From: an uncultured Eubacteriaceae bacterium
GTDB lineage: Bacteria; Bacillota; Clostridia; Eubacteriales; UBA1433
Direction: 5' to 3'
DNA: 64,000 nucleotides
Assembly (NCBI GenBank): GCA_964581565.1
Contig: CAZOOZ010000001.1
Location: 131,470-195,469, forward strand
Part shown: positions 6,671 through 53,245 of the stretch, one piece after another
Layout of the letters: each line of letters begins with the position of its first letter
How positions within the stretch are numbered: the stretch's first letter is position 1
Made by a program: the position numbers and the translations under genes
The notes under the pieces: model-generated
Databases searched by the model: none
The model's input: only the letters and a program-made list of their open reading frames with translations
Told to the model about the DNA's origin: nothing

Positions 6671-7180
6671 ATGGATTTATTAGGAAAATATTATTTTTAT
6701 AATCATGCAAATGAAATTGTTGCTACCACACATTACCAGGAACTGCATAGATATATACAACACGGTGAGACAACGGTGTTGGAGCACAGCATTTCGGTTG
6801 CGTATTACAGCTATAAATTGGGAAAATCTTTAAAGTTAAAATGTGATTACCGCAGCCTTATTAGAGGTGCGCTGTTGCATGATTTTTTCTTATACGATTG
6901 GCATAAAAAAGATAAGACGCGCAAACCCCATGGCGTATACCACCCTGAGGTAGCGCTTGAAAATGCATTGAAGCATTTTGAACTCAACCATAAAGAGCGC
7001 GATATCATCGCGAACCATATGTGGCCGCTTAGTCCGAAACCTCCCCACTATGTTGAATCATATCTGGTGTGGACAATAGACAAATATTGCACGATTATAG
7101 AAACCACGTCTAAATTCTTTAAATATAAACAAAAAATGCCGAAAACACTGTTCTACAATACGATTAATTTTGATAAATAA
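6671..7180 (+). CDS. HD-domain phosphohydrolase
   Basis: An H...HD motif (GALLHDFFLYDWH) and a small all-helical 169-aa protein. Confidence 0.7.
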   Translation: MDLLGKYYFYNHANEIVATTHYQELHRYIQHGETTVLEHSISVAYYSYKLGKSLKLKCDYRSLIRGALLHDFFLYDWHKKDKTRKPHGVYHPEVALENALKHFELNHKERDIIANHMWPLSPKPPHYVESYLVWTIDKYCTIIETTSKFFKYKQKMPKTLFYNTINFDK

Positions 7181-7838
7181 GGCTGTCAGGCCCGGGGATA
7201 TTCACTATTTTCGTAATATCGTCTATTTTTTGCTGACTGATTTTCTTTGGTATACTTAAGTCCTCCCAGAAATGCATAGGGATTGCAATTTTGGGGGAAA
7301 TTTTTTGGATAAAATATTTTATCGAATAGTCATAAGCATCTTCAAGTCTCGGATCAACGGGGATAAAAGCCATATCTACTTTATATTTACTTAAATTTTC
7401 AATATGCCGTTTATATTCTTTTTCCATATTTATCTGATTTTGCAGTGTATCTTCATTCCAGTGCCACCAATTTAGATCGCCTGAATGGAAGATTTTATAT
7501 TTTTCGGTCACGATATAAAATGAAACGCCCATATCCGTGGAGCCGAATGTGTAGAGAATGAAGTCCTTAAAAGTGTACTCTTCGTATTCCTTTACTAAAA
7601 CAATGTTTTTTGAAGAATCATAATTTTTTATGTCATCACTTAAGATATAGGTTGTATTTTTATTATCTGCATACGCAAAAATATCCTTGGTGTAGTGGTC
7701 GCCGTGGCTGTGAGAGGCAAGAAAATAAACCGGCTTCGTGTTTAGAGAAATTTTAGGAGGCGTGATTGCATCAATAAGCAGGATAAAAGTATCAAATTCA
7801 AGCATAAAACCACTTTGGAACAAATATGTTATTTTCAT
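7164..7838 (-). CDS. MBL-fold metallo-hydrolase
   Basis: HxHxDH motif (ASHSHGDHY) and later conserved H/D residues (FHSGD, PMHF). Confidence 0.75.
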   Translation of the reverse strand: MKITYLFQSGFMLEFDTFILLIDAITPPKISLNTKPVYFLASHSHGDHYTKDIFAYADNKNTTYILSDDIKNYDSSKNIVLVKEYEEYTFKDFILYTFGSTDMGVSFYIVTEKYKIFHSGDLNWWHWNEDTLQNQINMEKEYKRHIENLSKYKVDMAFIPVDPRLEDAYDYSIKYFIQKISPKIAIPMHFWEDLSIPKKISQQKIDDITKIVNIPGPDSLIYQN

Positions 7839-10538: not shown

Positions 10539-11402
10539 ATGATAAAAACAAATTGTGATAAATTAATTGTTCAATCGGTTTGCGGTGATATTGCTCATCC
10601 GCCCAGAGCAGGGGCATATCGTGTAAGTAGTCAAGGAGAAGCCTTAGTGCTTCCGGGTGTGGGCGGTATTGTATATAATGTTAAAATCGGAGACAGCGCG
10701 TTTGGCTGGGTTGGAGATCATATCGAGCCCGGGGTCAGCATTAAAAATCCAGAGGCCAAATACAATGAAGCGCTCAATACCATGACATGCATAGGCAATG
10801 AAGCGAAAGTTGTATCAGGTGAAGCCAAAGGGGCGACGGGCTATGTTTCAGGCACACACGGTGGAATAGAGCACGTGCTGGTTCAGTTTAAAAGTGAAGA
10901 TTTAGAAAAAATGGTCATAGGAGATACTATTCAAATAAAAGCATGCGGACAGGGTCTGCAGATTGCAGAAATAAAAAATGTCAAGTGTTTGAATTTGTCT
11001 CCTCAACTTTTAGATAAATGGGATATATTGATAAAAGACGGAATTTTAAACGTTCCGGTGTGTACGAGTGTGCCTGCATATATGATGGGTTCTGGGGTAG
11101 GATCCGGCTCAATGCATAGGGGAGACTATGATATTATGACTTCGGATGCCGATGCGGTTAAAGAATTTGATGTCGATAAACTGCGCCTAGGCGATTTGGT
11201 AATGATTACAGATCATGATACAAGATACGGTGTTGCCTATCGAAAAGGCTACGTCAGTGTCGGTGTGGTTGTTCACACAGATTGCATACAATCAGGACAT
11301 GGGCCGGGAGTGTGTATGTTGCTTACGGGGCCGGCAGAGCGGATACGGCCTGTATATGATAAAAATGCAAACATCGGATTTATGCTAAGTGAGAAGAAGT
11401 AA
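10539..11402 (+). CDS. Conserved hypothetical soluble protein (possibly DUF4438-like)
   Basis: A 287-aa Gly-rich ORF with no TM segment or signal peptide. It has an RBS-like AAGAGGA upstream. The family assignment is from memory only. Confidence 0.5.
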   Translation: MIKTNCDKLIVQSVCGDIAHPPRAGAYRVSSQGEALVLPGVGGIVYNVKIGDSAFGWVGDHIEPGVSIKNPEAKYNEALNTMTCIGNEAKVVSGEAKGATGYVSGTHGGIEHVLVQFKSEDLEKMVIGDTIQIKACGQGLQIAEIKNVKCLNLSPQLLDKWDILIKDGILNVPVCTSVPAYMMGSGVGSGSMHRGDYDIMTSDADAVKEFDVDKLRLGDLVMITDHDTRYGVAYRKGYVSVGVVVHTDCIQSGHGPGVCMLLTGPAERIRPVYDKNANIGFMLSEKK

Positions 11403-18391: not shown

Positions 18392-19789
18392 ATGGATAAT
18401 GATAACAGCAAAAAATATGAAGACGAAGAAAGCAGTATAAACAACGAAAATGATCAGTCAATAAATGACGAAGATGATCAATTAATAAATGTACACACAG
18501 ATATTGCGAATACTGATGAAAATAATGGGTCAGATATACAGCTTGTCGAACAAATACCTGAAGTTGAATATGATATCTCCGATGATGAAGAATATGATAC
18601 ATACGAGAAGAAAAGTGTCATTCAAAGAAGATGGTTCAAAGTTTTAATATCTGTTATCGTATTGCTGGGTATTGCAGGTGTTGTAGGTTTTGGTTATATT
18701 AATAAACTTGCAAGCAGTGGATCGGATTCGCTGGCAAGAGAAAATGATAAATTTTTAAATAAAGTTAATGTTTATAAGGGTTTAAATACTGCCGAGAATT
18801 TTGACAGCAATACAATTAATGTGTTGGTTTTTGGTATCGACAGAAGTGAGAGCCGGGAGGAAAGCGGTAAATTCGGGGATATTTACAGACCCGATACGAT
18901 CGTCTTAGCAAGTATAAATTTAGACACAGAAGAAGTGAATTTAATTTCTATTCCCAGAGATACGTATGTGCCTCTTTACGGAAACAGAGGAAAAACAAAG
19001 ATTAACTCATGTATGTATTACGGAGCTATTTACGGCGATAAAGACAGTGATTTCGAAAACGGCTTGGATTGCCTTGAGCAAACGGTAAGTGCTTTGTTTG
19101 GCGGGGTTCCCATTGATTTTTATGTGGGAATAGATATGGATACTGTTGTTGATGTTGTCAACAGCATGGGCGGGGTTGAATTCGATGTTCCGTATAATTT
19201 ATATAAAGATGGCGAGTTGAGGCTAAAAAAAGGGACTCAAGTCTTAAATGGAAAAAATTTTCTTTTCTTGGCTAGAGATAGATACAATGCAGGAAGCGAT
19301 ATCGAAAGAGTATCCATGCAGCAGAAATTATTAAAAGCATTGTTTGAACAATTCAAGGAATCCAATAAGTTGATGTCAATTCCCACGATCTATCAGTCAT
19401 TGAAAGAAGATATCTATACGAACTTTACTTTTGAGCAAGTTGTATCGTTGGCTGCCAATATAAAAGATTTGGAAGTTGATAATATAAATACACATACATT
19501 TCCAGGATTTTATGGCTCCAGAGATGGTATTTCTATGTGGATTATCAATCAATCTGCAAGAGTGTCTTTGATTAAAGAAGTTTTTGGTATTACCGCATCA
19601 CAATGGACGCAAGAGGAACTAAGAATAGATACACGCAAAAATACAACGACCACAGATTCAAGTGATGAAGAAGATGTAACGCCTGATGACGATGCATCAA
19701 CCGACGATACATCAACCGACGATGCTTCTACTCCTGATGACACATCGACAGAAGATACTCCTGCGGACGATTCTACAACAACGCCTTAG
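18392..19789 (+). CDS. LytR-CpsA-Psr (LCP) family glycopolymer ligase with acidic N- and C-terminal tails
   Basis: Single TM (VLISVIVLLGIAGVVGFGYI). LCP core (VLVFGIDRS ... RPDTIVLASIN ... ISIPRDTYV ... FLARDRY). Confidence 0.85.
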   Translation: MDNDNSKKYEDEESSINNENDQSINDEDDQLINVHTDIANTDENNGSDIQLVEQIPEVEYDISDDEEYDTYEKKSVIQRRWFKVLISVIVLLGIAGVVGFGYINKLASSGSDSLARENDKFLNKVNVYKGLNTAENFDSNTINVLVFGIDRSESREESGKFGDIYRPDTIVLASINLDTEEVNLISIPRDTYVPLYGNRGKTKINSCMYYGAIYGDKDSDFENGLDCLEQTVSALFGGVPIDFYVGIDMDTVVDVVNSMGGVEFDVPYNLYKDGELRLKKGTQVLNGKNFLFLARDRYNAGSDIERVSMQQKLLKALFEQFKESNKLMSIPTIYQSLKEDIYTNFTFEQVVSLAANIKDLEVDNINTHTFPGFYGSRDGISMWIINQSARVSLIKEVFGITASQWTQEELRIDTRKNTTTTDSSDEEDVTPDDDASTDDTSTDDASTPDDTSTEDTPADDSTTTP

Positions 19790-19798
19790 GCAGAAAAA

Positions 19799-19824
19799 TT
19801 AGCCTTTTACAGGCTGATTTTTTA
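19799..19824 (+). terminator. Weak rho-independent terminator after the LCP gene
   Basis: Stem TTAGCC / GGCTGA followed by TTTTTT. Confidence 0.45.
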
Positions 19825-19850: not shown

Positions 19851-19878
19851 TTGACAAATATTAAAAATATATTAAAAT
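19851..19878 (+). promoter_or_regulatory. Candidate sigma-A promoter of the phosphonate operon
   Basis: TTGACA (19851-19856), a 16-nt spacer, then TAAAAT (19873-19878). It lies ~80 nt upstream of the ATG at 19961. Confidence 0.45.
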
Positions 19879-19960: not shown

Positions 19961-21274
19961 ATGCAAGATAAGAAAAAAGTATATATAGCTGTGTCCGCTG
20001 ATATTATTCATAGCGGACATATAAATGTAATCGAAGAAGGGGCAAAATACGGACGAGTCATTATAGGTCTTATGACAGATGAAGCGATCGCAGCCTATAA
20101 GAGACTTCCTTTGTTAGATTATGAGGCAAGAGAAAAAATATTTAAAAATATAAAAAATGTTTCAAAAGTAGTACCGCAAACAAGTCTGGATTACACAGAA
20201 AATTTATTAAAATTTAAACCTGATTATGTTCTTCATGGAGACGATTGGAAAAAAGGGATTCAATCGCTTGTAAGAGAAAATGTAATTACCATTCTTTCGC
20301 AGTGGGGCGGAGAATTGGTGGAAGTGCCCTATACAAAAGGAATTTCCGCTACAGACTTAGAGCAGCAATTCAGGCTGTTAAATAACACGCCTGATAACCG
20401 ACGTGCAAAACTTAAACGTTTACTTTCTTTAAAACCCTACATTAGTGCAATGGAAGCTTCCAACGGCTTGACAGGGCTTATCGTTGAAAATATCAGAGTT
20501 GAAAACCCCGTTACTGCGACAATGAAGGAATTTGATGCTATGTGGGTCAGCAGTTTATGTGACTCTACTTTTAAAGGAAAGCCCGACATTGAACTGGTAG
20601 ATTTAACAAGCAGAATAAACACAATCAATGAAATAATGGAAGTGACGACAAAGCCGATTATTTTAGACGGCGATACGGGCGGGAAAATCGAACATTTTGT
20701 GTATAACGTAAAAACACTTGAACGACTTGGTGTTTCCGCAATTATTATTGAAGATAAAACAGGGCTGAAGAAGAATTCGCTTTTTGGTACGGATGTTGAG
20801 CAGACAATGGACGACCCGCATTTATTCGCAAAAAAAATCCTGGCCGGAAAACAAGCGCAGGTTACAAGAGATTTTATGATTTTTGCGAGAATCGAAAGTT
20901 TGATTGCGGGCTATGGGGTTGATGAGGCATTATCGAGAGCGAAGATCTATATAGAAGCAGGTGCGGATGGCATTACAATTCACAGCAAAGAAAAAGACGG
21001 AAAAGAAGTCTTGGAATTTTTAGCAAAATTCAGAGAATATTCGACAGATATACCTATTATCGTTATCCCTACATCGTATAATTATATTAAAGAAGAAGAA
21101 TTGCATGCGGCTGGAGCGAATATTATTATTCATGCCAATCATTTACTTCGAAGTGCGTATCCTGCGATGGAAAAAACGGCAAAAATGATTTTGCAATGCG
21201 GACGAAGTAAAGAAGTAGACGAGTTTTGCATGCCTATAAATGAGATACTGACATTGATTCCAGGAGGCAAATAG
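19961..21274 (+). CDS. Bifunctional cytidylyltransferase (TagD-like, N-terminal) / phosphoenolpyruvate mutase (C-terminal)
   Basis: N-terminal HxGH (IIHSGH), GDDW and an RTxGISTT-like YTKGISAT motif. The C-terminal ICL/PEPM fold has SNGLTGLIVE, ILDGDTGG and IIIEDKTGLKKNS (the Ppm EDKxxxKxNS motif). The gene sits directly upstream of a Ppd gene. Confidence 0.85.
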   Translation: MQDKKKVYIAVSADIIHSGHINVIEEGAKYGRVIIGLMTDEAIAAYKRLPLLDYEAREKIFKNIKNVSKVVPQTSLDYTENLLKFKPDYVLHGDDWKKGIQSLVRENVITILSQWGGELVEVPYTKGISATDLEQQFRLLNNTPDNRRAKLKRLLSLKPYISAMEASNGLTGLIVENIRVENPVTATMKEFDAMWVSSLCDSTFKGKPDIELVDLTSRINTINEIMEVTTKPIILDGDTGGKIEHFVYNVKTLERLGVSAIIIEDKTGLKKNSLFGTDVEQTMDDPHLFAKKILAGKQAQVTRDFMIFARIESLIAGYGVDEALSRAKIYIEAGADGITIHSKEKDGKEVLEFLAKFREYSTDIPIIVIPTSYNYIKEEELHAAGANIIIHANHLLRSAYPAMEKTAKMILQCGRSKEVDEFCMPINEILTLIPGGK

Positions 21275-21276
21275 AA

Positions 21277-22386
21277 ATGATTGAAACAAAAGAATTTTAT
21301 GATTACCTGCAAACAAAACAGCTGGATATGTATATGGGAGTACCCGATTCGCTTCTGAAAAATATCTGTGCCTGCATAAAAGAAAATTGTTGTAATAAGA
21401 AAAATATTATTACAGCAAACGAGGGAAATGCCGTGGCCATGGCATGTGGATATCATATAGCTACAGGCAAATATGGTATTGTTTATATGCAGAACTCAGG
21501 ACAAGGAAATACTGTAAACCCTCTGCTATCTCTCGCGGATGAAGATGTTTATAAAATTCCGATGCTGCTCCTTATCGGATGGAGGGGAGAGCCGGGGACA
21601 AAAGATGAGCCGCAGCATAAAAAACAGGGGAAAGTGACCCTGTCTTTATTGAATGCGATGGGCATTGAGTATATTATTTTGGAAGATGATTATAAATGTC
21701 AGATAGATTATTGCTATGAATATATGAATAAATATAATAAACCGATAGCACTTATTATACGCAAAGGGCTGTTTTCGGACTATAAGGGATCCAAGAAATC
21801 AAGTCCGTACGTTTTGACACGAGAAGAAGCATTAAAGAGTATTTTAAAAATACTTGATGATGACGAGTTTATTGTGTCTACGACAGGGAAAACATCGCGA
21901 GAAATTTTTGAGTTGAGAGAAGCAAGTGGGCAAGGGCACTCCAATGATTTTCTCACCGTTGGTTCTATGGGGCATACGGCATCCATTGCTTTTGGCATGT
22001 CGCTTGGGACGGAGAAAAACATATATTGTATCGATGGCGACGGATCGTTTCTAATGCACGCAGGTGGTTTTGGAATCATTGCGCAAAATGCGCAGAGTAA
22101 TTTTAAATATATATTGATCAACAATGGTGCGCATGAATCTGTGGGAGGACAGCCGACAGTAGCTTTTGATGTCGATATCGAAATGATATTAAAAGGATTT
22201 GGGTTTAAAGATGTTTATACGGCGACTGACTGCAAAGAAATAGAAAATGCAATGGAAAGTCTTAAAGTCAGTCATAGAAGTGCATTGATAATCTATACAA
22301 AACAAGGTTCTAGAAGCGATTTAGGGCGTCCGACAACAACGCCTCAGGAAAATAAAATTGCGATGATGGAGAAATTGAGTAAATAG
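21277..22386 (+). CDS. Phosphonopyruvate decarboxylase (TPP-dependent)
   Basis: N-terminal GVPDSLLKN motif typical of Ppd, TPP-binding GDGSFLMH ... NNGAHES, ~370 aa. There is a 2-nt gap after the mutase gene. Confidence 0.85.
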   Translation: MIETKEFYDYLQTKQLDMYMGVPDSLLKNICACIKENCCNKKNIITANEGNAVAMACGYHIATGKYGIVYMQNSGQGNTVNPLLSLADEDVYKIPMLLLIGWRGEPGTKDEPQHKKQGKVTLSLLNAMGIEYIILEDDYKCQIDYCYEYMNKYNKPIALIIRKGLFSDYKGSKKSSPYVLTREEALKSILKILDDDEFIVSTTGKTSREIFELREASGQGHSNDFLTVGSMGHTASIAFGMSLGTEKNIYCIDGDGSFLMHAGGFGIIAQNAQSNFKYILINNGAHESVGGQPTVAFDVDIEMILKGFGFKDVYTATDCKEIENAMESLKVSHRSALIIYTKQGSRSDLGRPTTTPQENKIAMMEKLSK

Positions 22387-22388
22387 GA

Positions 22389-24227
22389 ATGAGAGCGGTT
22401 ATTTTGAATTCGGGATTGGGAAAAAGAATGGGCGAGCTGACGGAAAATAATCATAAAGCGATGGTGCAACTGTCAAACGGAGAAGCTGTTTTTTTAAGAC
22501 AGCTTCGTATTTTGATGGAATGCGGGATCAAAGAATTTGTCGTCACAACAGGGCCGTATAAAGAAAAGATAGAAGCTGCGGTGGCGCAGATGAATACAAA
22601 GAACCAAGTATCTTTTACTTTTGTGCATAATCCGTGCTATGATAAAACCAATTATATATATTCAATGTATTTGGCGAAGCAATTCTTGGATGATGATATA
22701 CTTCTCATGCACGGCGATCTGGTCTTTACGAAAAAACTTGTCGAGGAAATGTGTAAAGATAAGAGAGATAATATTGCTACCGTAAATAAAAAGAAAAGTT
22801 TGCCTGAAAAAGATTTTAAGGCGAAACTTGAAGAAAATAGAATCCAAAAGATAGGCATAGAGCTTTTTGATGAAGACTGCTATGCATTCCAGCCTTTTTA
22901 TAAGCTAAGCAAAGAATATGTCATGCGATGGCGAGAACAAATATGTAAATTTATAGAAAAAGGAATTGATCAGGTTTATGCGGAAAATGCATTGAATGAA
23001 ATCCTGCCTTCTTTAAACATGAATGCATTCGATTACGAAGATTATTATATAGATGAAATCGATACGCCTGAAGACCTAAAGAGGGTAAGCGAAGAAATCA
23101 GGCAATATGATTTTGATGCACAGCAGATATATGATGAAGAAAACGCATATTTGCAAATTGAGTCTATTCTTCAGAAAAATAACGTCAAAAAAGTTATGCT
23201 GGTTTGCGGCAAAAGTTACGACAGGCAGTTTATAAAAGAGTACATGGATTCTTTGAACGTGGAGATGATTCGTTTTAGCGGCTTTGCATCTAATCCTGTA
23301 TATGAAGATGTGGTGAAAGGTGCTGAATTATTCAAGGCCAATAAATGTGAATTTATAATCTCGGTTGGCGGGGGAAGCGCTATCGATACAGCGAAAAATA
23401 TTAAATTGTTTTCATGTCTTGACAGCACTGATAATTATTTGAAGCAAAAATATAAATTTTGCCCTGTGCAGCATTTAGCAATACCTACAACGGCAGGAAC
23501 GGGCAGTGAATGCACCAGATTTTCTGTTTTGTATTATAAAGGGCAAAAACAATCAGTCAGCCATGACAGCATCATCCCCGATTATGTTATTTTAGAACCC
23601 AGATTGCTGCTTGGGTTACCCGAATATCAAAAAAAATCCACAACGCTTGACGCACTTTGCCAAGCAGTTGAAGCTTTTTGGTCGGTAAATTCAAATAAGA
23701 TCAGCAAACAATATTCTAAAGAGAGTATACAGCTCATACTTAATAGTTTTGATAAAGCACTTTTAAATGATTTAAAAGCATTAAAAAATATGCAAAAAGC
23801 ATCTTTTTTAAGCGGGAAAGCAATTAATATAGCGCAAACAACAGCTGCACATGCGATGAGCTATAAATTATCGTCACTTTATAACATTTCTCATGGTCAT
23901 GCCGTAAGCTTAAGTCTGCCTTATATCTGGGAATATATGGTTCAGCATTTAGATCAATGTGCGGATAAAAGAGGCAGAGCATATTTAGAAAATGTATTCA
24001 TCGAGTTAAACGATATATTTGGGGTCAGTAATACTGATGAATGTATCAATAAATTTAGACAAATATGCAATGAATTTAATCTGCAAAATCCAAAATTAAA
24101 AAATAAAGATGAGTTAGAAGAGTTAATAAACTCTGTAAATCCGCTTCGCTTGAAAAATAATCCTGTCACATTGAATATAGATAGTATTGAAGATATTTAC
24201 AGACATATTTTAACTGAGAAAAAGTGA
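22389..24227 (+). CDS. Fusion of LicC-like nucleotidyltransferase (N-terminal) and iron-containing alcohol dehydrogenase (C-terminal; predicted phosphonoacetaldehyde reductase)
   Basis: N-terminal MRAVILNSGLGKRMGELTENNHKAMV plus YDKTNYIYSMYLAK and IDEIDTPEDL, which parallel pneumococcal LicC. The C-terminal domain has GGGSAIDTAKN and the His-rich AHAMSY...SHGHAV Fe-ADH motifs. Confidence 0.8.
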   Translation: MRAVILNSGLGKRMGELTENNHKAMVQLSNGEAVFLRQLRILMECGIKEFVVTTGPYKEKIEAAVAQMNTKNQVSFTFVHNPCYDKTNYIYSMYLAKQFLDDDILLMHGDLVFTKKLVEEMCKDKRDNIATVNKKKSLPEKDFKAKLEENRIQKIGIELFDEDCYAFQPFYKLSKEYVMRWREQICKFIEKGIDQVYAENALNEILPSLNMNAFDYEDYYIDEIDTPEDLKRVSEEIRQYDFDAQQIYDEENAYLQIESILQKNNVKKVMLVCGKSYDRQFIKEYMDSLNVEMIRFSGFASNPVYEDVVKGAELFKANKCEFIISVGGGSAIDTAKNIKLFSCLDSTDNYLKQKYKFCPVQHLAIPTTAGTGSECTRFSVLYYKGQKQSVSHDSIIPDYVILEPRLLLGLPEYQKKSTTLDALCQAVEAFWSVNSNKISKQYSKESIQLILNSFDKALLNDLKALKNMQKASFLSGKAINIAQTTAAHAMSYKLSSLYNISHGHAVSLSLPYIWEYMVQHLDQCADKRGRAYLENVFIELNDIFGVSNTDECINKFRQICNEFNLQNPKLKNKDELEELINSVNPLRLKNNPVTLNIDSIEDIYRHILTEKK

Positions 24228-25078
24228 GAAAGATGCACGATAATTTATATAGAAATAACATTGAACATACTCAAGTAAAGCAACTGCAAGCATACGAGCT
24301 GGAGATTCTGCTTGCAGTAGACGAATTCTGCAAGCAGAACAATATCAATTATTATTTGGGGGAAGGAACTCTACTCGGCGCAATCCGGCACAATGGCTTT
24401 ATTCCGTGGGATGATGATATAGATCTTTTGATGCCGAGAGAAGATTATGAAAAATTTATTAGTCTGGCTCAGATTGCATTTCCTGATGGTTATTATTTAG
24501 ACTGTATGGAAACAAATCCAAATTACTGGGTCATAGGAGCGAAAATTAAATTGACGAGACAAACAAAATTTGAACAGACAAAAGTAAAAAAACTATCAAA
24601 GTATGCCGGGCCGTATATAGACATTTTTCCTTTGGATTATGTTGCAAAAAGAAGTAGTTTCCCGCAGCTTTGGCAAGGATACAAAATAAAAGCTTTACGA
24701 AGAACATTATTTTTCAAAACCAGATATTCAATGAATTTTAAAAATAAATTTAATGTCTTATTATTTTTGTTCAGTAAAATCGTAACTATTAAATTTATTC
24801 ATAAGAGAATAAAAAAAATCATGACTAAATATAACGATAAAAAAGATAATGCATATATGCTGAGTTATGCAAGTTATTATCCGCCCGCCAATCAGACAGT
24901 GCATAAATCTGTATACGGCAAGGCAAGAATGCATGTTTTCGAAGGCTACGAATTCCCGATTCCGGCGAAAACAGAGTGTTTGCTTACGGCCATCTACGGT
25001 GATTATATGACCGTTCCCGATGAGGAAGACAGAATCATGAAGCATCACTTTTCCGTAAAACAAAATTTTTCATATTAG
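24224..25078 (+). CDS. LicD-family phosphotransferase
   Basis: LGEGTLLGAIRHNGFIPWDDDIDLLMPREDYEKF and YGDYMTVPDEE motifs. GTGA overlap with the upstream stop (alternative ATG at 24233). Confidence 0.85.
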   Translation: MRKMHDNLYRNNIEHTQVKQLQAYELEILLAVDEFCKQNNINYYLGEGTLLGAIRHNGFIPWDDDIDLLMPREDYEKFISLAQIAFPDGYYLDCMETNPNYWVIGAKIKLTRQTKFEQTKVKKLSKYAGPYIDIFPLDYVAKRSSFPQLWQGYKIKALRRTLFFKTRYSMNFKNKFNVLLFLFSKIVTIKFIHKRIKKIMTKYNDKKDNAYMLSYASYYPPANQTVHKSVYGKARMHVFEGYEFPIPAKTECLLTAIYGDYMTVPDEEDRIMKHHFSVKQNFSY

Positions 25079-25091
25079 CAAAGGAAGATGT

Positions 25092-26975
25092 ATGGAACAA
25101 GGTAGCATAAAAGTATCTGTTATTGTGCCGGTTTATAATGTGGAGCATTATCTGCCGCAATGTCTGGACAGCTTGGTAAACCAGACATTAAATGATGTGG
25201 AAATTCTTGTAATCAATGATGGCTCCCCCGATAATTCTCAAGTCATTATCGATGAATATGTAAGAAAATATCCAAATAAAATAAAAGCATTTATAAAAGA
25301 AAACGGTGGGCTCAGCGATGCACGCAACTATGGCATCAAAAAGGCGAAAGGGGAATATATCGGGTTTGTTGACTCGGATGATTATGCCGAAGTAAATATG
25401 TTCGAGGAGCTTTATATAAAAGCCGTCAGTGAGAACTTTGACGTTGTTGTTTGCTATATAAATGAGCTTAAAGAAGATAAAACAAAAATCATGCCTCTGC
25501 ACTATTTAAGAGCTTTTGGAGGCAGCGTTGAAGAAAACCCCGAGGTTTTATTTGCGTGTAAATCTTATGCATTTAACAAATTGTATAAAAGAAAACTCTT
25601 TATAGACAATGATCTATATTTTCCTGTGGGCCAGGTTTTTGAGGATTCGGCCACTGTCTATAATGTGCTTTTAATGGCAAATAAAATTGGGCTTGTCGAT
25701 AAAGCTTTATGCAATTACAGAACAGACAGAGTAAATTCCATCACGAACAGTGTTGATATGGGCATGTTTGATGTATTTAAATCCTGCGATAGTATTATTA
25801 ATTTTTATACATCAAAAGGTGTGTTTGATATCACATATGAAGTGCTGGAAAATATATGCAGAATGCATGTTTTTGCAAGAATCAATACACTTAAAAATTC
25901 AACGAACAGAAAATTTCAAAATCAATTTTTTGATAAAGCATATAAATATTTAGATAACCATTTTCCAAATTGGAGAAAAAATAGATATTATCAATATTCG
26001 TATAAAAATTTAATCAAAAAAAGAACGTACAAAAAGTTTACGAAAGCAAAAATGTATAAAACAAGATTAAAAATGTATTTTATAATCCCGATGAGTTTTC
26101 GGCGAAAACTGATGAAAATATTTTGGCGCAAGAAACCAAAGCTTGTTAAGGCAAAGTTTTCGCCGGAACAATTTAAACAATTACAGCTCATTGAATTAGA
26201 CATATTAAAGACTGTGGATGCTTTTTGCAAAGAAAACAATATCGCGTACTATTTGGCCGAAGGAACACTGCTTGGAGCAATCAGGCACAACGGATTCATA
26301 CCATGGGATGATGATGTGGATATTCTGATGCCGAGAGAAGATTATGATAGATTTATCAAATTATTCAATACACAAATAATTGATAACTGCATACTTTGCA
26401 GTCGTCATACTATAAAAGAGTATCATTTGCCGTTTTCAAAAATAGTCACACTTCAAGATACAGGCTTTATTAATAACGAAAGCTTTTCTTTAAAAGAGTA
26501 TAATGGGGTATATATTGATATTTTTCCTCTCGATAAAGCAATCGAATATGGAGAGGAACAGAATCAAAGAAGAAAAAAAATAAGAAAATACAGAGATATG
26601 CTTCTTTTTAAAACAGGCTATCCCATGAAAGCAACAAAAGAGAGGTTTGTCACAAAGATAAGATCTTGTTTTTATTCATATGAAATTTTACATAAAAGAA
26701 TAGAGCAGCTTTCAACTTACTATAATGATAAAGAAGATTGCGAGTATGTAGCTAACTATGCCAGCTCATACCAGCTGAAAAGACAAACATTTCCCATATG
26801 GGCATTTGAAGAAGTTGAATATGTTTCCTTTGAAACATATAAACTACCTGTTCCAAAAGGATATGATTTGGTTTTGAGTATCATTTATGGCGACTACTTA
26901 ACGTTCCCGCCTCTTGAAAAAAGAAAATCAAAACATAGCTTTATTTATATGAATGACGGGCAGATAAAGAGTTAA
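25092..26975 (+). CDS. GT2 glycosyltransferase (N-terminal) fused to LicD-family phosphotransferase (C-terminal)
   Basis: GT2: VSVIVPVYNVEHYL ... INDGSPDNS ... FVDSDD. LicD: LAEGTLLGAIRHNGFIPWDDDVDILMPREDYDRF ... YGDYLTFPP. Confidence 0.85.
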   Translation: MEQGSIKVSVIVPVYNVEHYLPQCLDSLVNQTLNDVEILVINDGSPDNSQVIIDEYVRKYPNKIKAFIKENGGLSDARNYGIKKAKGEYIGFVDSDDYAEVNMFEELYIKAVSENFDVVVCYINELKEDKTKIMPLHYLRAFGGSVEENPEVLFACKSYAFNKLYKRKLFIDNDLYFPVGQVFEDSATVYNVLLMANKIGLVDKALCNYRTDRVNSITNSVDMGMFDVFKSCDSIINFYTSKGVFDITYEVLENICRMHVFARINTLKNSTNRKFQNQFFDKAYKYLDNHFPNWRKNRYYQYSYKNLIKKRTYKKFTKAKMYKTRLKMYFIIPMSFRRKLMKIFWRKKPKLVKAKFSPEQFKQLQLIELDILKTVDAFCKENNIAYYLAEGTLLGAIRHNGFIPWDDDVDILMPREDYDRFIKLFNTQIIDNCILCSRHTIKEYHLPFSKIVTLQDTGFINNESFSLKEYNGVYIDIFPLDKAIEYGEEQNQRRKKIRKYRDMLLFKTGYPMKATKERFVTKIRSCFYSYEILHKRIEQLSTYYNDKEDCEYVANYASSYQLKRQTFPIWAFEEVEYVSFETYKLPVPKGYDLVLSIIYGDYLTFPPLEKRKSKHSFIYMNDGQIKS

Positions 26976-27138
26976 GAAATTTATAAGTTGTATAAACGGC
27001 TTCGTTTCTGTATAATAGAGGCGATATATTTAGTAGATTAAATGAAAAATAAATATAATAAAACATAAAAACAATCTATACGTTTATAATAATAATGCGC
27101 TAGATGCATGACAAAAATGATGCAAAGTATCATTACAG

Positions 27139-27960
27139 TTGGAGAATTCGAAATTGACTATAGAACAAATAAAAGAGTTGCAGGCTATAGAACTAGATAT
27201 CTTATTGCAAGTAGACAAAGTTTGTAAAAAACATAATATAACCTATTATCTCGGAGAAGGCTCTCTGCTTGGAGCTGTACGCCATAAAGGGTTTATCCCA
27301 TGGGATGATGATTTGGATATTCTAATGAAGCGGGATGAGTATGAAAGATTTTTAAAAATCGCACCGGCAGAAATGGGCCCGAATTATGAAGTACAGCATC
27401 CTACCACTGTGTATAGCTATTGGTCGCCTTTTATTAAAGTAAGATTGCTTGGAAAACAGAAGTTCAGGCAAAAGCATATCGCACATCTTACCGAAAATAA
27501 CGGGCCGTATATCGATATTTTTCCGATGGAATCGGTGCCGAAACTAAAAAGTCTCGGACAATTATGGCAAGGCATGAAGATAAATTTTTTGAGAGCCATG
27601 CTTACCTATAAACTAGTTCTGCGTAAACCTAATACTATGAAAAGAAAACTAGTCACTGCATCATCCAAGTTTTTATCGATCAATACAATACACAAGATGC
27701 TTGATAAAAATTTCAAACTATATAATGACAGAAAAGATAATAATTATACCGTCACGCTTGCCAGTTATCATAATATGTTTAATCAGACAGTGCCCGATGA
27801 AGTATACGGGCAGCCTGTAGAGGTAGAGTTTGAGGGACACGTGTTTCCGGCCCCAAGGCAATACGATTATCTTTTAAGACGGGTTTATGGAGATTACACA
27901 AAGCTGCCGCCCCTAGAAAAACAGACTATTAAGCATCATTTTATAGTCATTGAAGAATAA
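27139..27960 (+). CDS. LicD-family phosphotransferase (third paralog)
   Basis: LGEGSLLGAVRHKGFIPWDDDLDILMKRDEYERF ... YGDYTKLPP. The more likely start is the TTG at 27154, 7 nt after GGAGAA. Confidence 0.8.
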   Translation: MENSKLTIEQIKELQAIELDILLQVDKVCKKHNITYYLGEGSLLGAVRHKGFIPWDDDLDILMKRDEYERFLKIAPAEMGPNYEVQHPTTVYSYWSPFIKVRLLGKQKFRQKHIAHLTENNGPYIDIFPMESVPKLKSLGQLWQGMKINFLRAMLTYKLVLRKPNTMKRKLVTASSKFLSINTIHKMLDKNFKLYNDRKDNNYTVTLASYHNMFNQTVPDEVYGQPVEVEFEGHVFPAPRQYDYLLRRVYGDYTKLPPLEKQTIKHHFIVIEE

Positions 27961-32393: not shown

Positions 32394-33461
32394 ATGAACA
32401 TCAAATTTAGCCAATCAAAAACCAAAAAAGAAAAACCTTCGTGGGACGAATGTGGATTTTGCAATTATTATTCAGACAATATGTTTGTCGTTGATTATGA
32501 CGATAAAATCGGATGGCATAATGCAAGAATCGAAGAATACGCACAATTTCTGATTGATCCCGCCGCTTTGGTTTTTCATTACGGACAGGAAAGCTTTGAA
32601 GGCATGAAAGCTTTTTATGGGGTAGACGGAAAGATAAGACTTTTCAGACCGGAAAAAAATATGGAACGTATGAATGACACGCATGACCGTTTGGCGATGC
32701 CGACTTTTGCTGTGGATGAAATGCTGGATGCGATCGAAGAACTTATTAAAATAGATCAAGATTGGGTTCCGCCAAAAGATGGAATGGCGCTTTATATCCG
32801 ACCATTTTGTATCGCGACCGGAACACATCTCGGTGTAAAACGTTCCGATAAATATATATATTTTGTAATCTTATCTCCTGTAGGAGCATATTATCCCGAG
32901 GGAATGAAACCCACAAAAATATATATTGAAGATAAATACATACGTTCGGCACAAGGTGGTATCGGCCATTATAAAGCCGGAGCAAACTATGCAGGTACGC
33001 TAAAACCGGGCGAAGAAGTTATTCAAAAAGGTTACTCGCAGATATGCTGGCTTGATGCTAAAGAAAATAAATATATAGAAGAAGTTGGAACGAGCAATAT
33101 TATGTTTGTCATAGACGGTAAAATTGTAACGCCGCCTCTAACAAGAGGAACTATCCTTCCAGGGATTACAAGAGCTACTGTCATTCAGCTCGCCAATGAG
33201 TGGAGTATTCCGGTGGAAGAGAGAGATATCACTGTTGACGAAGTATTTAAAGCGGCGGAAGAAGGTAGATTAACGGAAGCCTTTGCAACGGGTACGGCAG
33301 CGGTTATTTCTCCTGTAGGATTATTGAAATGGAAAGATAAAGAAGCTGTTGTAAACAATCAAGTCATTGGTGAAATTTCACAAAGATTATATGATGAAAT
33401 CACAGACCTTCAATATGGTAAAAAAGAAGATACAAGAGGCTGGATTAAGGTAATAGAATAA
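32394..33461 (+). CDS. ilvE: Branched-chain amino acid aminotransferase
   Basis: 355-aa class IV aminotransferase pattern (FEGMKAF ... LFRP ... GGIGHYKAGANY ... EVGTSNIMFV ... GITR). Confidence 0.85.
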   Translation: MNIKFSQSKTKKEKPSWDECGFCNYYSDNMFVVDYDDKIGWHNARIEEYAQFLIDPAALVFHYGQESFEGMKAFYGVDGKIRLFRPEKNMERMNDTHDRLAMPTFAVDEMLDAIEELIKIDQDWVPPKDGMALYIRPFCIATGTHLGVKRSDKYIYFVILSPVGAYYPEGMKPTKIYIEDKYIRSAQGGIGHYKAGANYAGTLKPGEEVIQKGYSQICWLDAKENKYIEEVGTSNIMFVIDGKIVTPPLTRGTILPGITRATVIQLANEWSIPVEERDITVDEVFKAAEEGRLTEAFATGTAAVISPVGLLKWKDKEAVVNNQVIGEISQRLYDEITDLQYGKKEDTRGWIKVIE

Positions 33462-38719: not shown

Positions 38720-39850
38720 TTATGCCATCGCTGTAAAGGCATTGTCGATATGAAGTATTTTATTGTCTTCATAGATTTCAATGATATCGAAGCGAATATC
38801 CGTATCCTGAATATGATGTTGCATGATGTAATGCAGTGCGGTTTGTGTGATCTTATTTATCTTGGCATAGTTGACCGCCATGGAGCCTGTGCCGTAGTCG
38901 GTATTTTTTCTCGTTTTGACTTCGCAAAATACCAGATATTCACGATCTTTATAAACAATATCAATCTCACCGTAAGGACTGGCGTAGTTTTTCTCTAGGA
39001 TGCGATACCCTTTATTTGCGATATATTCACAAGCCAGCACTTCGCCTGCATTGCCTATAGCTTTTTTGTCTTTTAGTGTAAATATATTTTTAATAAAGCT
39101 CTGTCTGTGAATAGTGCAAGGACCGTATTTGCGGATTGCTTCAATATGTGAGGATGTACCGTAGCCTTTGTTCGCATCAAATTCATACATAGGATATTCA
39201 AGAGCATATTGCTTCATCATGTGATCTCTGGTAACCTTTGCGACAATGCTTGCCGCTGCGACGGAGTAATAATTCTCATCAGCTTTACTTGGTCCCGCCT
39301 GTCTGATGGGGCAGGGCAGTAACAGTGCATCAATGAGCAGTGCATCGGGGTTGATATTTAAGTTTTCAACTGCTTGCATCATTGCTTCTTTGGTTGCATT
39401 TAAAATGTTGATTTTATCAATTCTATTATTATCGACAAAGCCGATTCCTATGGACATGGCATTTTCATAAATAGTTTGATATAGTTCTTCACGCTTTTTT
39501 TCGGTTAGTTTTTTGCTATCGTTTAGATACAAAACGGGGTTAGTAGCGCTCATTATTGTTGCACATGCCACGACCGGGCCTGCCAGAGGCCCTCTGCCGA
39601 CTTCATCAATTCCGGCAATGAGAACAGCCTCGCCGCCAAACAATGAATTTTGCGCAGCAATCATATGGTCTGTTCTTGTAATCTCTTTGTGATGCAGCGT
39701 TTCCTGTTTTTGCAATTGAGCTGCAAACGCGAGCACACTTTTACGATGATCTAAAAGTAAGTCATTATAATAATTCTTATATTCTTTTATATGAATTGTT
39801 TTGAAATAATTTTTGATTTCCTGAAGGGAAAAGTCTTTAAAATTTATCAT
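38720..39850 (-). CDS. rnhB: Fusion protein: ribonuclease HII (N-terminal) + YraN/UPF0102 PD-(D/E)xK-like endonuclease domain (C-terminal)
   Basis: RNase HII motif GIDEVGRGPLAGPVV ... DSKKL. The C-terminal ~110 aa (GNAGEVLACEYIANKGYRILEKNYASPYGEIDIVY ... FCEVKTR) match the YraN pattern. The two parts lie in one uninterrupted ORF. Confidence 0.8.
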   Translation of the reverse strand: MINFKDFSLQEIKNYFKTIHIKEYKNYYNDLLLDHRKSVLAFAAQLQKQETLHHKEITRTDHMIAAQNSLFGGEAVLIAGIDEVGRGPLAGPVVACATIMSATNPVLYLNDSKKLTEKKREELYQTIYENAMSIGIGFVDNNRIDKINILNATKEAMMQAVENLNINPDALLIDALLLPCPIRQAGPSKADENYYSVAAASIVAKVTRDHMMKQYALEYPMYEFDANKGYGTSSHIEAIRKYGPCTIHRQSFIKNIFTLKDKKAIGNAGEVLACEYIANKGYRILEKNYASPYGEIDIVYKDREYLVFCEVKTRKNTDYGTGSMAVNYAKINKITQTALHYIMQHHIQDTDIRFDIIEIYEDNKILHIDNAFTAMA

Positions 39851-47864: not shown

Positions 47865-49691
47865 TTATCTGTTTCTTTGTCTTAATTTTATTATTATAAT
47901 ACATGCTGCAAGAACTATAAATACCGCACCTATGATAATGACGGCAGTGAGCGGGAATGTCGAGAGACTGACGGGATCAAAGCTAAATTCCAGCTGCTCT
48001 CCGTCATCTGTTGTGCATTTCACTTTCAGCGTAATATCTTTATCGTCTTTATAGTCTTGATCTGATAGCTGTATTACTTGTTTATCGCCAATGATAAGGG
48101 AATCGAGTGTGGCGAGCAAGGCGCCGTTTCTCGCATCGATGATTTCTATATTATTTAAATTTGCATTTCCGTCATTAAGCAGTGTCACATCAAAGCTGAC
48201 ATGTTCTTTATCTTTAGAATTGATATTTTCAATTAAGAGCATTGTGCTCGGTTCGTTTTTACGCTCGACTTCAAAAATCTGTTTCGATAATATGAAAGAA
48301 TTTGCCGTATTTTTTCCGTCTTGCAAAGTCACGCTCACACTGGGAGCACTGACAAAATCGTTTGTGAATTTACCGGTTGCTGTAAAGCTGAATTCTTCAC
48401 CTACAGCTATGCTGTCCGCGGTATAAATTTCTCCCAGAACACCATCCGATATTACCAAATCCGTCAGTTCATAGTCACTGACGTTTTTGGCGGTGTAGGA
48501 AATGGTCGCGTCTGTATAAAAAGGCAACTTATCCGTATCTATACTTCTTTGTATATCCAAACTTGGCGGAACAGAAGAAATGGTGAGTTCGGCGGTTGCT
48601 TTAAAAGGCGTGCTGCTGTCGGCTACATAGGCGTAAATTGCAAACGAATATTGCTTATCGGGTTCAATGGTCATATTTTCCGTAGATGAATTTGAAGCGC
48701 CTGATGCAACTGCGCCTATATCAATGATAGGTTCACTCGATGCTTTGCCGCTGTCATCAAGCAGATAGATAAAAGCTGTAATGACTTCGTAATCCGTATT
48801 ATTTTGAAAATCAAACATAATATCCATTTTTTCTGCGGTTTCGATATAGGTCTTTGCAGGCGTGATATCTAAAGTCAGTTTGCTCTCAATCGGTGAATCT
48901 ATAACTTTGCCTGTTACCTTAACTGTGGGAAGCTCTGTTCGTACACTTTCGCCTGTCATGGCATCCGTATATTCTAAAATAATGTACGAGTTGACGGAGC
49001 CTGCCGGAACAGAGATGTCTTTTTGAAACCGCTTGCTCTGGCCTTCTTTGAGATCGCCGAGGCTGCCAAGCAATCCGTAAGTGGAATCATAGACTTTTAC
49101 ATCGTTTGCTTTCCCGCCCGATGATAAGGTTACTTTTCCGCCGAAAAAGACAGGAAAGTCGCTGATGCCAACCGGATCGGCATCTGTGGTATAAGTGACG
49201 GTAAACTGGGGGGAATAAAGCTTGATCGTGTTACTTGAAGAGGAGTATTCAATCCATTCATTATCCAGTTTATACATAAGTTTGTAAGCAATAGTTATGC
49301 TTTTTCCGTATGTAGATTTCATCGTAACAGAGGTGCCGGTCACTTTTGCTGTTGAGTTTTGGTTTACTGTGGCATACAAGGTTGTCCAGTCTGAGACAAC
49401 GCTGCCGGCCGTGGATGTTATTTTTTCATAAATTGCTATTTCTATAGAACCAGTATACGTGGAGGAGTTTTTAATGCTGTATGTTTGAGCAAATACGCTA
49501 TCCTCGCTTACGGTATAAGTGTCATCTATTGTTTTACCCTGGCCGCTGCTTACAATTTGCGATACGCTTAGGTTCAAATTTATGCTGTCTTGTGTGAGAA
49601 GTTCTTCCGCTGAGATAAATGTCATACTAAAAAGTAAAAAGGTAGTTATAAATAATAACGATATAATCGGTTTAATATTTCTTTTTATCAT
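47865..49691 (-). CDS. Large membrane-anchored surface protein, beta-rich repeat domains, unknown function (608 aa)
   Basis: N-terminal signal peptide (LFSMTFISAEE). The body is S/T/V/Y-rich and looks like several Ig-like modules. A C-terminal TM segment is followed by the basic tail KLRQRNR. Confidence 0.7.
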   Translation of the reverse strand: MIKRNIKPIISLLFITTFLLFSMTFISAEELLTQDSINLNLSVSQIVSSGQGKTIDDTYTVSEDSVFAQTYSIKNSSTYTGSIEIAIYEKITSTAGSVVSDWTTLYATVNQNSTAKVTGTSVTMKSTYGKSITIAYKLMYKLDNEWIEYSSSSNTIKLYSPQFTVTYTTDADPVGISDFPVFFGGKVTLSSGGKANDVKVYDSTYGLLGSLGDLKEGQSKRFQKDISVPAGSVNSYIILEYTDAMTGESVRTELPTVKVTGKVIDSPIESKLTLDITPAKTYIETAEKMDIMFDFQNNTDYEVITAFIYLLDDSGKASSEPIIDIGAVASGASNSSTENMTIEPDKQYSFAIYAYVADSSTPFKATAELTISSVPPSLDIQRSIDTDKLPFYTDATISYTAKNVSDYELTDLVISDGVLGEIYTADSIAVGEEFSFTATGKFTNDFVSAPSVSVTLQDGKNTANSFILSKQIFEVERKNEPSTMLLIENINSKDKEHVSFDVTLLNDGNANLNNIEIIDARNGALLATLDSLIIGDKQVIQLSDQDYKDDKDITLKVKCTTDDGEQLEFSFDPVSLSTFPLTAVIIIGAVFIVLAACIIIIKLRQRNR

Positions 49692-53238: not shown

Positions 53239-53245
53239 GAATTGA

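Follow-up and report, generated by a model that had tools for sequence, protein, structure and literature searches.

What does a phosphonate operon make when it encodes no aminotransferase and carries, after the genes for phosphonoacetaldehyde formation, a nucleotidyltransferase (NT) fused to an iron-containing alcohol dehydrogenase (ADH)? Such an operon lies in a 64,000-nucleotide stretch of DNA from an uncultured Eubacteriaceae bacterium (assembly GCA_964581565.1, contig CAZOOZ010000001.1, positions 131,470 to 195,469), hereafter the window, in which the NT-ADH gene occupies 22389-24227. Based on domain identities, conserved catalytic residues and gene linkage observed over hundreds of genomes, we suspect, with a probability of roughly 0.7, that this gene encodes the last two soluble steps of the 2-hydroxyethylphosphonate (HEP) branch of the 'phosphonyl tailoring' pathway. 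Until now, phosphonates on cell surfaces have been discussed chiefly as decorations with 2-aminoethylphosphonate (AEP), and the NT-ADH family points to a second, HEP-based one.

The operon (19961-27960) encodes, in order, a cytidylyltransferase (CyTase) fused to phosphoenolpyruvate (PEP) mutase (Ppm; gene 1), phosphonopyruvate decarboxylase (Ppd; gene 2), NT-ADH, a LicD protein, a fusion of a family 2 glycosyltransferase (GT2) to LicD, and a further LicD. In the proposed pathway, the PEP mutase of gene 1 would convert PEP to phosphonopyruvate, from which Ppd would form phosphonoacetaldehyde. The ADH domain, a Zn/Fe-type group-III enzyme of the PhpC kind, would reduce the aldehyde to HEP with NAD(P)H, and the NT domain and/or the Fom1-like CyTase of gene 1 would convert HEP and cytidine triphosphate (CTP) to cytidine monophosphate (CMP)-HEP and pyrophosphate. 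CMP-HEP could then serve the three LicD-family enzymes as donor of the HEP-phosphonyl group for hydroxyls of a cell-wall glycopolymer, whose glycan the fused GT2 may build in part, and the adjacent LytR-CpsA-Psr (LCP) enzyme would join the decorated polymer to peptidoglycan. The substrates, the choice of nucleotide, whether reduction precedes cytidylylation, and the final acceptor are all inferred here. A preliminary description of this DNA, made from its letters without database searches, had envisaged a pathway ending in a nucleoside monophosphate-phosphonate used by LicD, and the domain identities and gene linkage support that view.

The fused protein

NT-ADH is a single unbroken open reading frame (ORF) on the forward strand, whose 612 amino acids (aa) comprise a LicC/PntC-type nucleotidyltransferase (aa 1-240) and a group-III ADH (aa 246-612) without a linker. 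The first is recognised in Pfam as NTP_transf_3 (PF12804; aa 3-132, E 2.3e-10, 41.3 bits against a cutoff of 27) and NTP_transferase (PF00483; E 3.1e-8), matches that together span aa 3-134, and the second as Fe-ADH (PF00465; aa 246-404, E 1.2e-37, 129.6 bits against a threshold of 31.3) and ADH_Fe_C (PF25137; aa 417-607, E 9.4e-25, 87.9 bits against 27). In an AlphaFold2 model built on the family alignment (predicted local distance difference test 92.7; predicted template modelling score, pTM, 0.89), there is no disordered linker and helix 227-243 continues straight into the ADH domain. Conservation is strong in both domains throughout that alignment. We rejected an assembly or frameshift artefact as the source of the fusion, because an independent metagenome contig encodes a 100% identical protein and the architecture is common to more than 120 full-length homologues (48-78% identity). 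Thus the fusion of a LicC-like nucleotidyltransferase to an Fe-ADH, as originally described, is real.

Database names differ between forms. Fused proteins are labelled 'alcohol dehydrogenase class IV/GTP:adenosylcobinamide-phosphate guanylyltransferase' by JGI and 'iron-containing alcohol dehydrogenase' by NCBI, and stand-alone orthologues are 'phosphonoacetaldehyde reductase' in RefSeq, a mismatch that constitutes an annotation gap.

The alcohol dehydrogenase domain

Given that gene context, the nearest annotated relatives and the active-site residues converge, we consider the ADH domain, judged from its sequence, to be very probably a PhpC-type phosphonoacetaldehyde reductase making HEP, in agreement with the preliminary description. 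It is encoded beside ppm and ppd, with no competing AEP transaminase (AEPT). When the domain was compared by tblastn with 72,556 plasmid records, two matches stood out, from Segatella copri DSM 18205 (46.6%) and Fulvitalea axinellae (37.4%). Both are stand-alone proteins named 'phosphonoacetaldehyde reductase' in RefSeq, are encoded directly after aepX-aepY, and share all key ADH residues. Other plasmid-borne Fe-ADH matches had less than 31% identity, save one partial match (35.5% over 72% of the domain).

Among solved structures, BkTauF (6JKO), a sulfoacetaldehyde reductase of Bifidobacterium, is the best match in both sequence and fold. The Zn ligands of BkTauF are Asp192, Gln196, His261 and His275, of which the Gln was described as atypical (PMC6616044). 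D421, Q425, H488 and H502 of the window protein are in register with these four residues; D421, H488 and H502 are invariant in the family, and the second ligand is Gln in 54 and His in 13 of the 67 readable members. The dinucleotide motif G327-G-G-S-A-I-D333 (GGGSxxD) is also invariant. A residue that separates the two kinds of reductase is Tyr264 of PhpC: PhpC enzymes conserve it strictly, sulfoacetaldehyde reductases have Phe in its place, and a hydrogen bond from it to the phosphonate is predicted (PMC13576164, 2026); the PhpC site is completed by Lys157, Arg349 and Thr256 (PMC13576164). At the position of Tyr264 the window protein has Y492, which is aligned with Phe265 of BkTauF and lies four residues past the His ligand, and Tyr occupies this position in all 70 family members in which the motif could be located. 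By register, T484 matches Thr256 and K387 matches Lys157 of PhpC, and both are invariant.

The nucleotidyltransferase domain

As had been noted, the NT domain parallels pneumococcal LicC motif by motif, with GLGKR at aa 9-13, YDKTNYIYSMYL at aa 84-95 and YYIDEID at aa 219-225. It aligns with LicC (1JYK) over aa 2-235 (E 8.4e-9), and the family profile gives the same alignment at E 4e-19 in a three-sequence search. Its other PDB matches are to inositol-1-phosphate cytidylyltransferase (IPCT; 5.8e-10), 4JD0 (3.3e-8) and the PntC-AEPT protein of Treponema denticola (Tde; 1.1e-5). G9, G11, R13, K23, H108, G109, D110, E223 and D225 are invariant, and E199 is nearly so; all of the invariant residues except H108 and G109 make up the catalytic signature. 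These matches place the domain in the LicC/PntC/IPCT group and support its predicted role as a LicC/PntC-type activator.

The predicted head-group pocket differs from those of both PntC and LicC. In Treponema PntC, Glu104 and Glu196 contact the amine of AEP, and their LicC counterparts are Asp105 and Asp192 (PMC6697681). The NT domain has His108 and Glu199 in place of the PntC pair, as Glu104 of Tde-PntC aligns with His108 at high posterior probability and Asp192 of LicC aligns with Glu199. The H-G-D motif that contains His108 is present in 71 of 74 family members, and the His is also kept in stand-alone forms; we call this group the His clade. The His108/Glu199 pair argues against AEP as the NT substrate, not against a phosphonate substrate, and a His in place of one of two carboxylates would fit a neutral hydroxyl head group. 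The choline pocket of LicC is likewise altered (Asp105 to His108, Trp191 to Ala198), and neither licA nor licB is found in the window. As expected of a PntC, the PF12804 domain is encoded close to ppm, here two genes after it.

An exhaustive search of 1.84 billion cluster representatives returned 185 NT representatives at E <1e-30. Among the best 150 of these, fusions of the NT-ADH or NT-ADH-LicD type number 62, about 81 proteins stand alone with a length of about 240 aa, and four are NT-CyTase fusions with or without Ppm. The NT domain also has weak to moderate matches to Pfam DUF6564 (PF20202), which reach 34 bits against a cutoff of 25 in S. copri AepX (P0002, L084:5826-7835; P and L numbers are our own labels for proteins and loci). 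DUF6564 seems to overlap the His-clade nucleotidyltransferases.

Distribution and gene arrangements

In a scan of one genome per GTDB species, we found 432 relatives of the fusion. The carriers are mostly Clostridia (Oscillospiraceae, Acutalibacteraceae, Christensenellaceae, Lachnospiraceae, Ruminococcus) and metagenome-assembled genomes (MAGs) labelled Bacilli, with some Actinomycetota, a few Bacteroidota and one Chloroflexota. The nearest genome is an uncultured Eubacteriaceae MAG (78% identity, identical synteny), and cultured carriers include Yeguia hominis NSJ-40, Anaerosporobacter mobilis DSM 15930, Butyrivibrio sp. LB2008 and Adlercreutzia sp. ZJ304.

A survey of co-occurrence, which the preliminary description had suggested, was made on 80 genome loci that hold a relative of the fusion, with our own ORF calling and BLAST probes. 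Ppd was found in 79 of the 80 loci and Ppm in 75, and four of the five loci without Ppm are cut by a contig end. A further 80 loci were retrieved from metagenomes with an alignment of stand-alone NT members; here, this ADH was present in all 22 loci that have at least 3 kb on both sides of the His-clade NT gene. Class-V aminotransferases were rare among neighbouring ORFs of 320-460 aa (2/109 in genome loci, 2/93 in metagenome loci). The NT clade is tied to the HEP-forming reductase, and the fusion is one of several arrangements.

NT and ADH are separate genes in 5 of the 80 genome loci and in most metagenome loci. Besides the fused form of this window, the metagenome loci show the orders CyT-Ppm, Ppd, NT, ADH; Ppd, NT, CyT-Ppm, ADH; and NT-CyT-Ppm, ADH, Ppd. 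In S. copri, among others, the NT domain is instead attached to Ppm, AepX being an NT-CyT-Ppm triple fusion whose NT part is 46% identical to that of the window. The suggestion that the fusion implies substrate channelling is not supported, because unfused and differently fused versions are common. The fused form itself may channel, but in our reading the fusion is a convenience of gene organisation that the mechanism does not need.

LicD, TagF-like or CDP-alcohol transferases accompany the module in 51 of the 80 genome loci. TagF-like genes occur in 19 of these 80 loci and are the commonest 320-460 aa neighbour in the metagenome loci (13 of 93 ORFs), and genes for TagGH-like ATP-binding cassette (ABC) exporters were found in 12/80 loci.

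Other arrangements were seen in passing. The S. copri locus (L084; DSM 18205, NZ_CP085933.1, 113-133 kb) lies on a 167-kb replicon labelled plasmid in this human-gut Prevotellaceae type strain, and encodes the 669-aa NT-CyTase-Ppm protein followed by Ppd, the stand-alone reductase, a TagF-like transferase, Wzy, a flippase and a D-alanylation-like adenylation/carrier pair. Larger fusions of up to 1849 aa (NT-ADH-LicD, NT-ADH-GT2-LicD) would combine phosphonate synthesis, activation and transfer on one polypeptide; those of about 1845 aa occur in L007 (3255-~8800), L017 and L133, and P0005, P0024, P0043, P0074, P0083, P0095 and P0104 have 875-1005 aa. In a subgroup without LicD (L024, L026, L027, L038, L047 and L015), an HD-domain protein (~180-240 aa) and a small protein (~140-160 aa) are encoded directly 5' of CyTase-Ppm (e.g., L026:5755-6477 and L024:6850-7332).

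Two cytidylyltransferases

The operon holds a second potential activator, the N-terminal domain of gene 1. Gene 1 passes the NCBIfam equivalog cutoff for PEP mutase (TIGR02320 PEP_mutase, 380 bits against a cutoff of 320), and the protein carries the motifs HSGH, YTKGISAT and EDKTGLKKNS. Its N-terminal domain had been called TagD-like. The CyTase domain of Fom1 (5X3D) is a far better match (E 1.6e-48, 55% identity over 130 residues) than TagD (E 4.5e-9 in the PDB), and the TagD model TIGR01518 misses its cutoff (51.2 bits against 165.4); the domain is thus not TagD-like. The domain keeps the HxGH and TxGIS motifs; across the family, HxGH is found in 53 of 57 CyTase-Ppm proteins and EDKx5NS in 67 of 67. 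According to the summary of Cho et al. 2017 given in PMC6697681, the Fom1 CyTase domain converts HEP to CMP-HEP, and this second, Fom1-like cytidylyltransferase probably acts on a phosphonate as well. A PF01467-Ppm fusion also sits in an AEPT cluster of Bacteroides fragilis (PMC8942020); as a source of AEP-type CyTase-Ppm comparators for the specificity of the similarity to Fom1, the plasmid collection yielded only two examples, both of the HEP type.

The presence of two activators is a known but unexplained pattern. In clusters of Treponema, Atopobium and Olsenella, a nucleotidyltransferase fused to ppm is accompanied by another one or two genes away (PMC6697681), and our data sharpen a question already visible in Rice et al. 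2019, namely why phosphonate clusters keep two unrelated cytidylyltransferases. A CyTase domain is present on 66 of 75 Ppm proteins in the genome loci and on 46 of 56 in the metagenome loci. Six Lachnospiraceae-type loci (L050, L054, L064, L067, L070 and L081; e.g., L064:5293-8018 and L070:6647-8003) have Ppm without CyTase, no nucleotidyltransferase was detected there besides NT, and NT-ADH adjoins a CDP-alcohol phosphatidyltransferase. In four other loci (L117:3887-5494, L127:3365-5059, L142:616-2358 and L153:2-1129), the N-terminal CyTase of Ppm is replaced by a distantly related C-terminal PF12804-like domain with the motif Y/N-S-D-I-L-F, and a separate His-clade NT is retained. That two slots are kept while one of them changes fold favours non-identical roles for the two activators.

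The Lachnospiraceae-type clusters, whose carriers include Anaerosporobacter mobilis, Butyrivibrio sp. LB2008 and Faecalimonas, have the order B12-binding radical-SAM (S-adenosylmethionine) protein, CDP-alcohol phosphatidyltransferase, 215-aa protein, Ppm, Ppd, NT-ADH. This suggests a variant that makes a phosphonolipid, possibly with Fom3-like C-methylation of CMP-HEP; a search for likeness of the B12-radical-SAM gene to Fom3 gave no informative PDB or NCBIfam match. The 215-aa gene (c12) was considered as a hidden nucleotidyltransferase and set aside, having no Pfam, NCBIfam or PDB match.

The two activators had been thought to fit the three LicD paralogs of the operon. Loci with both activators have anywhere from 0 to 3 LicD genes, and the LicD count does not track that of the activators, which leaves that explanation without support. 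In pneumococci, LicD1 and LicD2 decorate different positions or polymers, and by analogy the three LicDs here probably do the same.

Weighing the alternatives

Several observations weigh against the HEP role proposed for NT-ADH. The ADH domain misses the cutoff of TIGR03405 (Phn_Fe-ADH/PsrA) by a wide margin (139.9 bits against 423.7), and the ErcA, FucO and AdhE models score it about equally. NCBIfam equivalogs were abandoned as a means of identifying the domain, since no cutoff is reached and ErcA, PsrA, FucO and AdhE are not discriminated; the S. copri reductase named as such in RefSeq also falls below the TIGR03405 cutoff (133.5 bits), which means that TIGR03405 covers another subgroup. 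The second metal ligand is Gln, as opposed to the His reported for PhpC, and for R587, which is invariant, equivalence to PhpC Arg349 could not be fixed. The top PDB match of the NT domain is IPCT and not a phosphonate enzyme. As gene 1 carries a domain 55% identical to the HEP-active CyTase of Fom1, NT might be redundant or have another substrate. The Fulvitalea cluster has CyTase-Ppm, Ppd, the reductase and LicD with no PF12804 NT, and LicD can evidently be served without a His-clade NT. With the Lachnospiraceae-type loci at the other extreme, either activator alone can accompany a CMP-dependent transferase.

The points that concern NT would suit a division of labour, in which the gene 1 CyTase, similar as it is to the only such domain with proven HEP activity, makes CMP-HEP and NT activates another molecule of the same polymer, such as a second head group, a phospho-alcohol or a sugar phosphate; in essence, the preliminary description had suggested the same. 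The co-conservation of both activators and the loci in which one slot has changed fold point the same way, as does the LicD of Fulvitalea, which has a CyTase alone to draw on. We nevertheless regard this as unlikely, given that no licA, licB, kinase or other gene for the synthesis or import of a second head group was found in the operon or window, that the NT clade goes with the reductase (22/22 loci) and with no other recurring enzyme, that Lachnospiraceae-type clusters still have a CDP-alcohol-type transferase with NT as the sole nucleotidyltransferase detected, and that LicD number is independent of activator number. A reversal of the two steps, in which NT would cytidylylate phosphonoacetaldehyde and the ADH domain would reduce CMP-phosphonoacetaldehyde to CMP-HEP, seems to us highly improbable. 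There is a precedent for it in FR-900098 biosynthesis, where the partner domain fused in FrbH works on the CMP-conjugate. In PMC6697681, FrbH is mentioned as one of the PF12804 enzymes with a phosphonate substrate, and the tight, linker-free two-domain protein (pTM 0.89) would suit such an order; however, stand-alone orthologues of NT and of ADH are common, the ADH domain keeps K387, T484 and Y492, the PhpC-type residues proposed to clamp free phosphonate, and the transaminase domain of the Treponema fusion Tde1415 acts on free AEP and phosphonoacetaldehyde. We give hardly any credence to a module without a phosphonate link, in which a LicC supplying LicD with CDP-choline would be attached to a generic alcohol dehydrogenase. 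LicD enzymes classically use CDP-choline, NCBI and JGI name only an alcohol dehydrogenase, and the ADH domain reaches no NCBIfam equivalog cutoff, but the linkage to Ppm and Ppd is near-absolute, licA and licB are missing from the window, the equivalent of LicC Asp105 is His, and the Tyr typical of PhpC is present.

A more speculative extension concerns the polymer itself. Unlike AEP or choline, HEP has a free terminal hydroxyl, and CMP-HEP is therefore a structural analogue of CDP-glycerol. Because of this hydroxyl and the frequent TagF-like and TagGH-like neighbours, a chain with repeated HEP units is conceivable, and LicD/TagF-like transferases could polymerise CMP-HEP to poly(2-hydroxyethylphosphonate) or a mixed chain; we think this rather improbable. 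The two cytidylyltransferases might then serve priming and elongation, or two donors. The TagF-like gene directly 3' of the reductase in S. copri and the LCP ligase gene beside the operon here are circumstantial evidence for such a chain. If true, the product would be a teichoic-acid-like wall polymer with C-P bonds in its backbone that resists phosphodiesterases.

The operon and its surroundings

The features of the operon and of its 5' side are collected in Table 1. The LCP gene directly 5' of the operon, which has counterparts in two related loci (L001 and L004), is probably transcribed separately. A terminator-like hairpin and the best sigma-70-like site of the region both sit in the 171-nt gap before gene 1, and the phosphonate operon likely starts at the latter.

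Table 1. Predicted features of the phosphonate operon and its 5' flank (positions within the window)
Feature	Position	Strand	Evidence or remark
LCP (LytR-CpsA-Psr) glycopolymer-to-peptidoglycan ligase	18392..19789	+	Pfam LytR_cpsA_psr E 2.3e-33
Terminator-like hairpin	19793-19823	+	precedes promoter-like site
Sigma-70-like site TTGACA-16-TAAAAT	19851-19878	+	best in region, 11/12 consensus matches; consensus match only
Gene 1, Fom1-like CyTase domain (aa 1-140) + PEP mutase (aa 148-437)	19961..21274	+	PF01467 E 2.7e-11, PF13714 E 3.9e-50
Gene 2, phosphonopyruvate decarboxylase (Ppd)	21277..22386	+	TIGR03297, 436 bits against cutoff 312.5
NT domain, LicC/PntC-type, His clade	22389..23108	+	PF12804, PF00483
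ADH domain, PhpC-type phosphonoacetaldehyde reductase (predicted)	23124..24227	+	PF00465, PF25137
LicD-family phosphotransferase	24224..25078	+	PF04991 E 3.1e-46
GT2 glycosyltransferase + LicD domain fusion	25092..26975	+	PF00535 E 1.2e-34, PF04991 E 1.8e-45
Third LicD-family phosphotransferase	27139..27960	+	PF04991 E 4.1e-45

The genes are tightly packed, with 2-nt gaps and, at the 3' end of NT-ADH, a 4-nt overlap or a 5-nt gap depending on the start codon of the first LicD. The GTG at 24224 given in the ORF list overlaps the ADH stop codon; translation probably begins instead at the ATG of 24233, which has GAGAAAG 5' of it and better suits the spacing in L001, where the LicD homologue begins 12 nt past the ADH stop codon. 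Pairwise identity among the three LicD domains is 43-47%, and each retains the conserved acidic motifs WDDDVD and DIFPLD.

No aminotransferase was found in the operon by Pfam or NCBIfam, in line with the earlier claim that the locus has none, and no class-V aminotransferase was seen in the scanned rest of the window. The sole nearby aminotransferase is a class-IV (IlvE-like) gene at 32394-33461, past a divergent ABC-F gene, Rex and GlnA, in a synteny also kept in L001. We rejected this gene as a hidden AEPT, as it is of the wrong class, lies beyond a divergent gene, and is a housekeeping gene that is likewise a neighbour in L001.

The remaining genes of the window serve housekeeping and transport. 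A region at 53242-61846 has about 50% G+C, against 32-42% in the rest of the window, and may have been horizontally acquired; it encodes an Opp-type peptide ABC importer (two permeases, two ATPases and an SBP_bac_5 protein) and two ABC exporter half-transporters. A 376-aa ORF at 38720-39850 (-) is a fusion of RNase HII and a UPF0102 (YraN-like) domain, and a DUF4438 protein at 10539-11402 (+), with both domains present (E 1e-59 and 1e-51), adjoins a protein with three PG_binding_1 repeats. The ORFs at 47865-49691 (-), 62508-63539 (-), 7164-7838 (-) and 49805-50479 (-), of 608, 343, 224 and 224 aa, have no Pfam match at E<=1e-5.

Implications

If our reading of NT-ADH is correct, HEP decoration would extend to at least 432 species-level genomes, mostly of gut and rumen Clostridia and Bacilli-class MAGs, with S. 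copri as a representative of the unfused form. This would provide a concrete biological source for the HEP that appears to feed recently described, widely distributed HEP-catabolic pathways (PMC13576164). It was recently suggested that HEP may abound at sites of plant-fibre degradation, since members of these communities produce it, and the rumen and gut distribution of the NT-ADH family fits HEP production in fibre-degrading communities. The cultured strains named above are those in which to look for the decoration.

Comparison with known systems

The components of the module each have a characterised relative. LicC (PDB 1JYK) shares the fold of the NT domain, the G-x-G-x-R, Y..N..YS.YL and (Y)xEID motifs, and a product that goes to LicD; it differs in its substrate-pocket residues (Asp105, Asp192 and Trp191, which correspond to His108, Glu199 and Ala198) and in its linkage to choline genes, where the window has ppm and no licA or licB nearby. 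BkTauF (PDB 6JKO/6JKP; PMC6616044) is the closest solved structure to the ADH domain (E 1.9e-34; template modelling score 0.84 on the target), with an identical D/Q/H/H Zn site and a substrate that is the sulfonate isostere of phosphonoacetaldehyde. It is only 25% identical, has Phe265 where Tyr492 is found here, and belongs to taurine metabolism. PhpC and FomC (PMC13576164) have in common with the ADH domain the PF00465 fold, the Tyr at the position of Tyr264, by register also a Thr and a Lys at those of Thr256 and Lys157, and a place beside ppm/ppd, and are set apart from it by its Gln as second metal ligand, its fusion to NT and its TIGR03405 score below the cutoff.

At the level of pathways, the early steps of fosfomycin biosynthesis, catalysed by Fom1 (CyTase-Ppm), Fom2 (Ppd) and FomC (Fe-ADH), share their chemistry with the proposed pathway up to CMP-HEP, and gene 1 shares the architecture of Fom1. 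Here, a second, unrelated nucleotidyltransferase is fused to the reductase, Fom3, Fom4 and FomD are not found in the window, and the predicted output is a cell-surface decoration via LicD rather than an antibiotic. HEP-bearing glycans are an established class of natural products, as exopolysaccharides with HEP are cited for Stackebrandtia nassauensis and Glycomyces (PMC8942020, PMC13576164), although these hosts are Actinomycetes and not gut or rumen Clostridia, for which we found nothing comparable in the searchable literature. The enzymes that act after HEP in these exopolysaccharides are not defined in the parts of the literature consulted. In the searchable literature we also came across no account of an NT-Fe-ADH fusion, or of a cell-surface pathway that uses CMP-HEP.

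The closest parallel is Tde1415, the PntC-AEPT fusion of Treponema denticola (PDB 6PD1/6PD2; Rice et al. 2019, PMC6697681), which makes CMP-AEP (PMC6697681). Like NT-ADH, it joins an N-terminal PF12804 cytidylyltransferase to an enzyme that converts phosphonoacetaldehyde, is encoded just after ppm and ppd in a cluster that also has a Ppm-fused nucleotidyltransferase, and has LicD-like transferases or glycosyltransferases near it. Its NT domain is only distantly related to that of the window (E 1.1e-5 over aa 2-133) and has Glu104 where the latter has His, and its partner domain is a class-V aminotransferase in contrast to the group-III ADH found here. Since a reductase here stands where Tde1415 has the transaminase, CMP-HEP rather than CMP-AEP is the expected product. 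By this analogy, we regard NT-ADH as the HEP counterpart of the Treponema PntC-AEPT protein: not a new kind of system, but a widespread and uncharacterised variant of a known pathway, with a mechanism that can be predicted.

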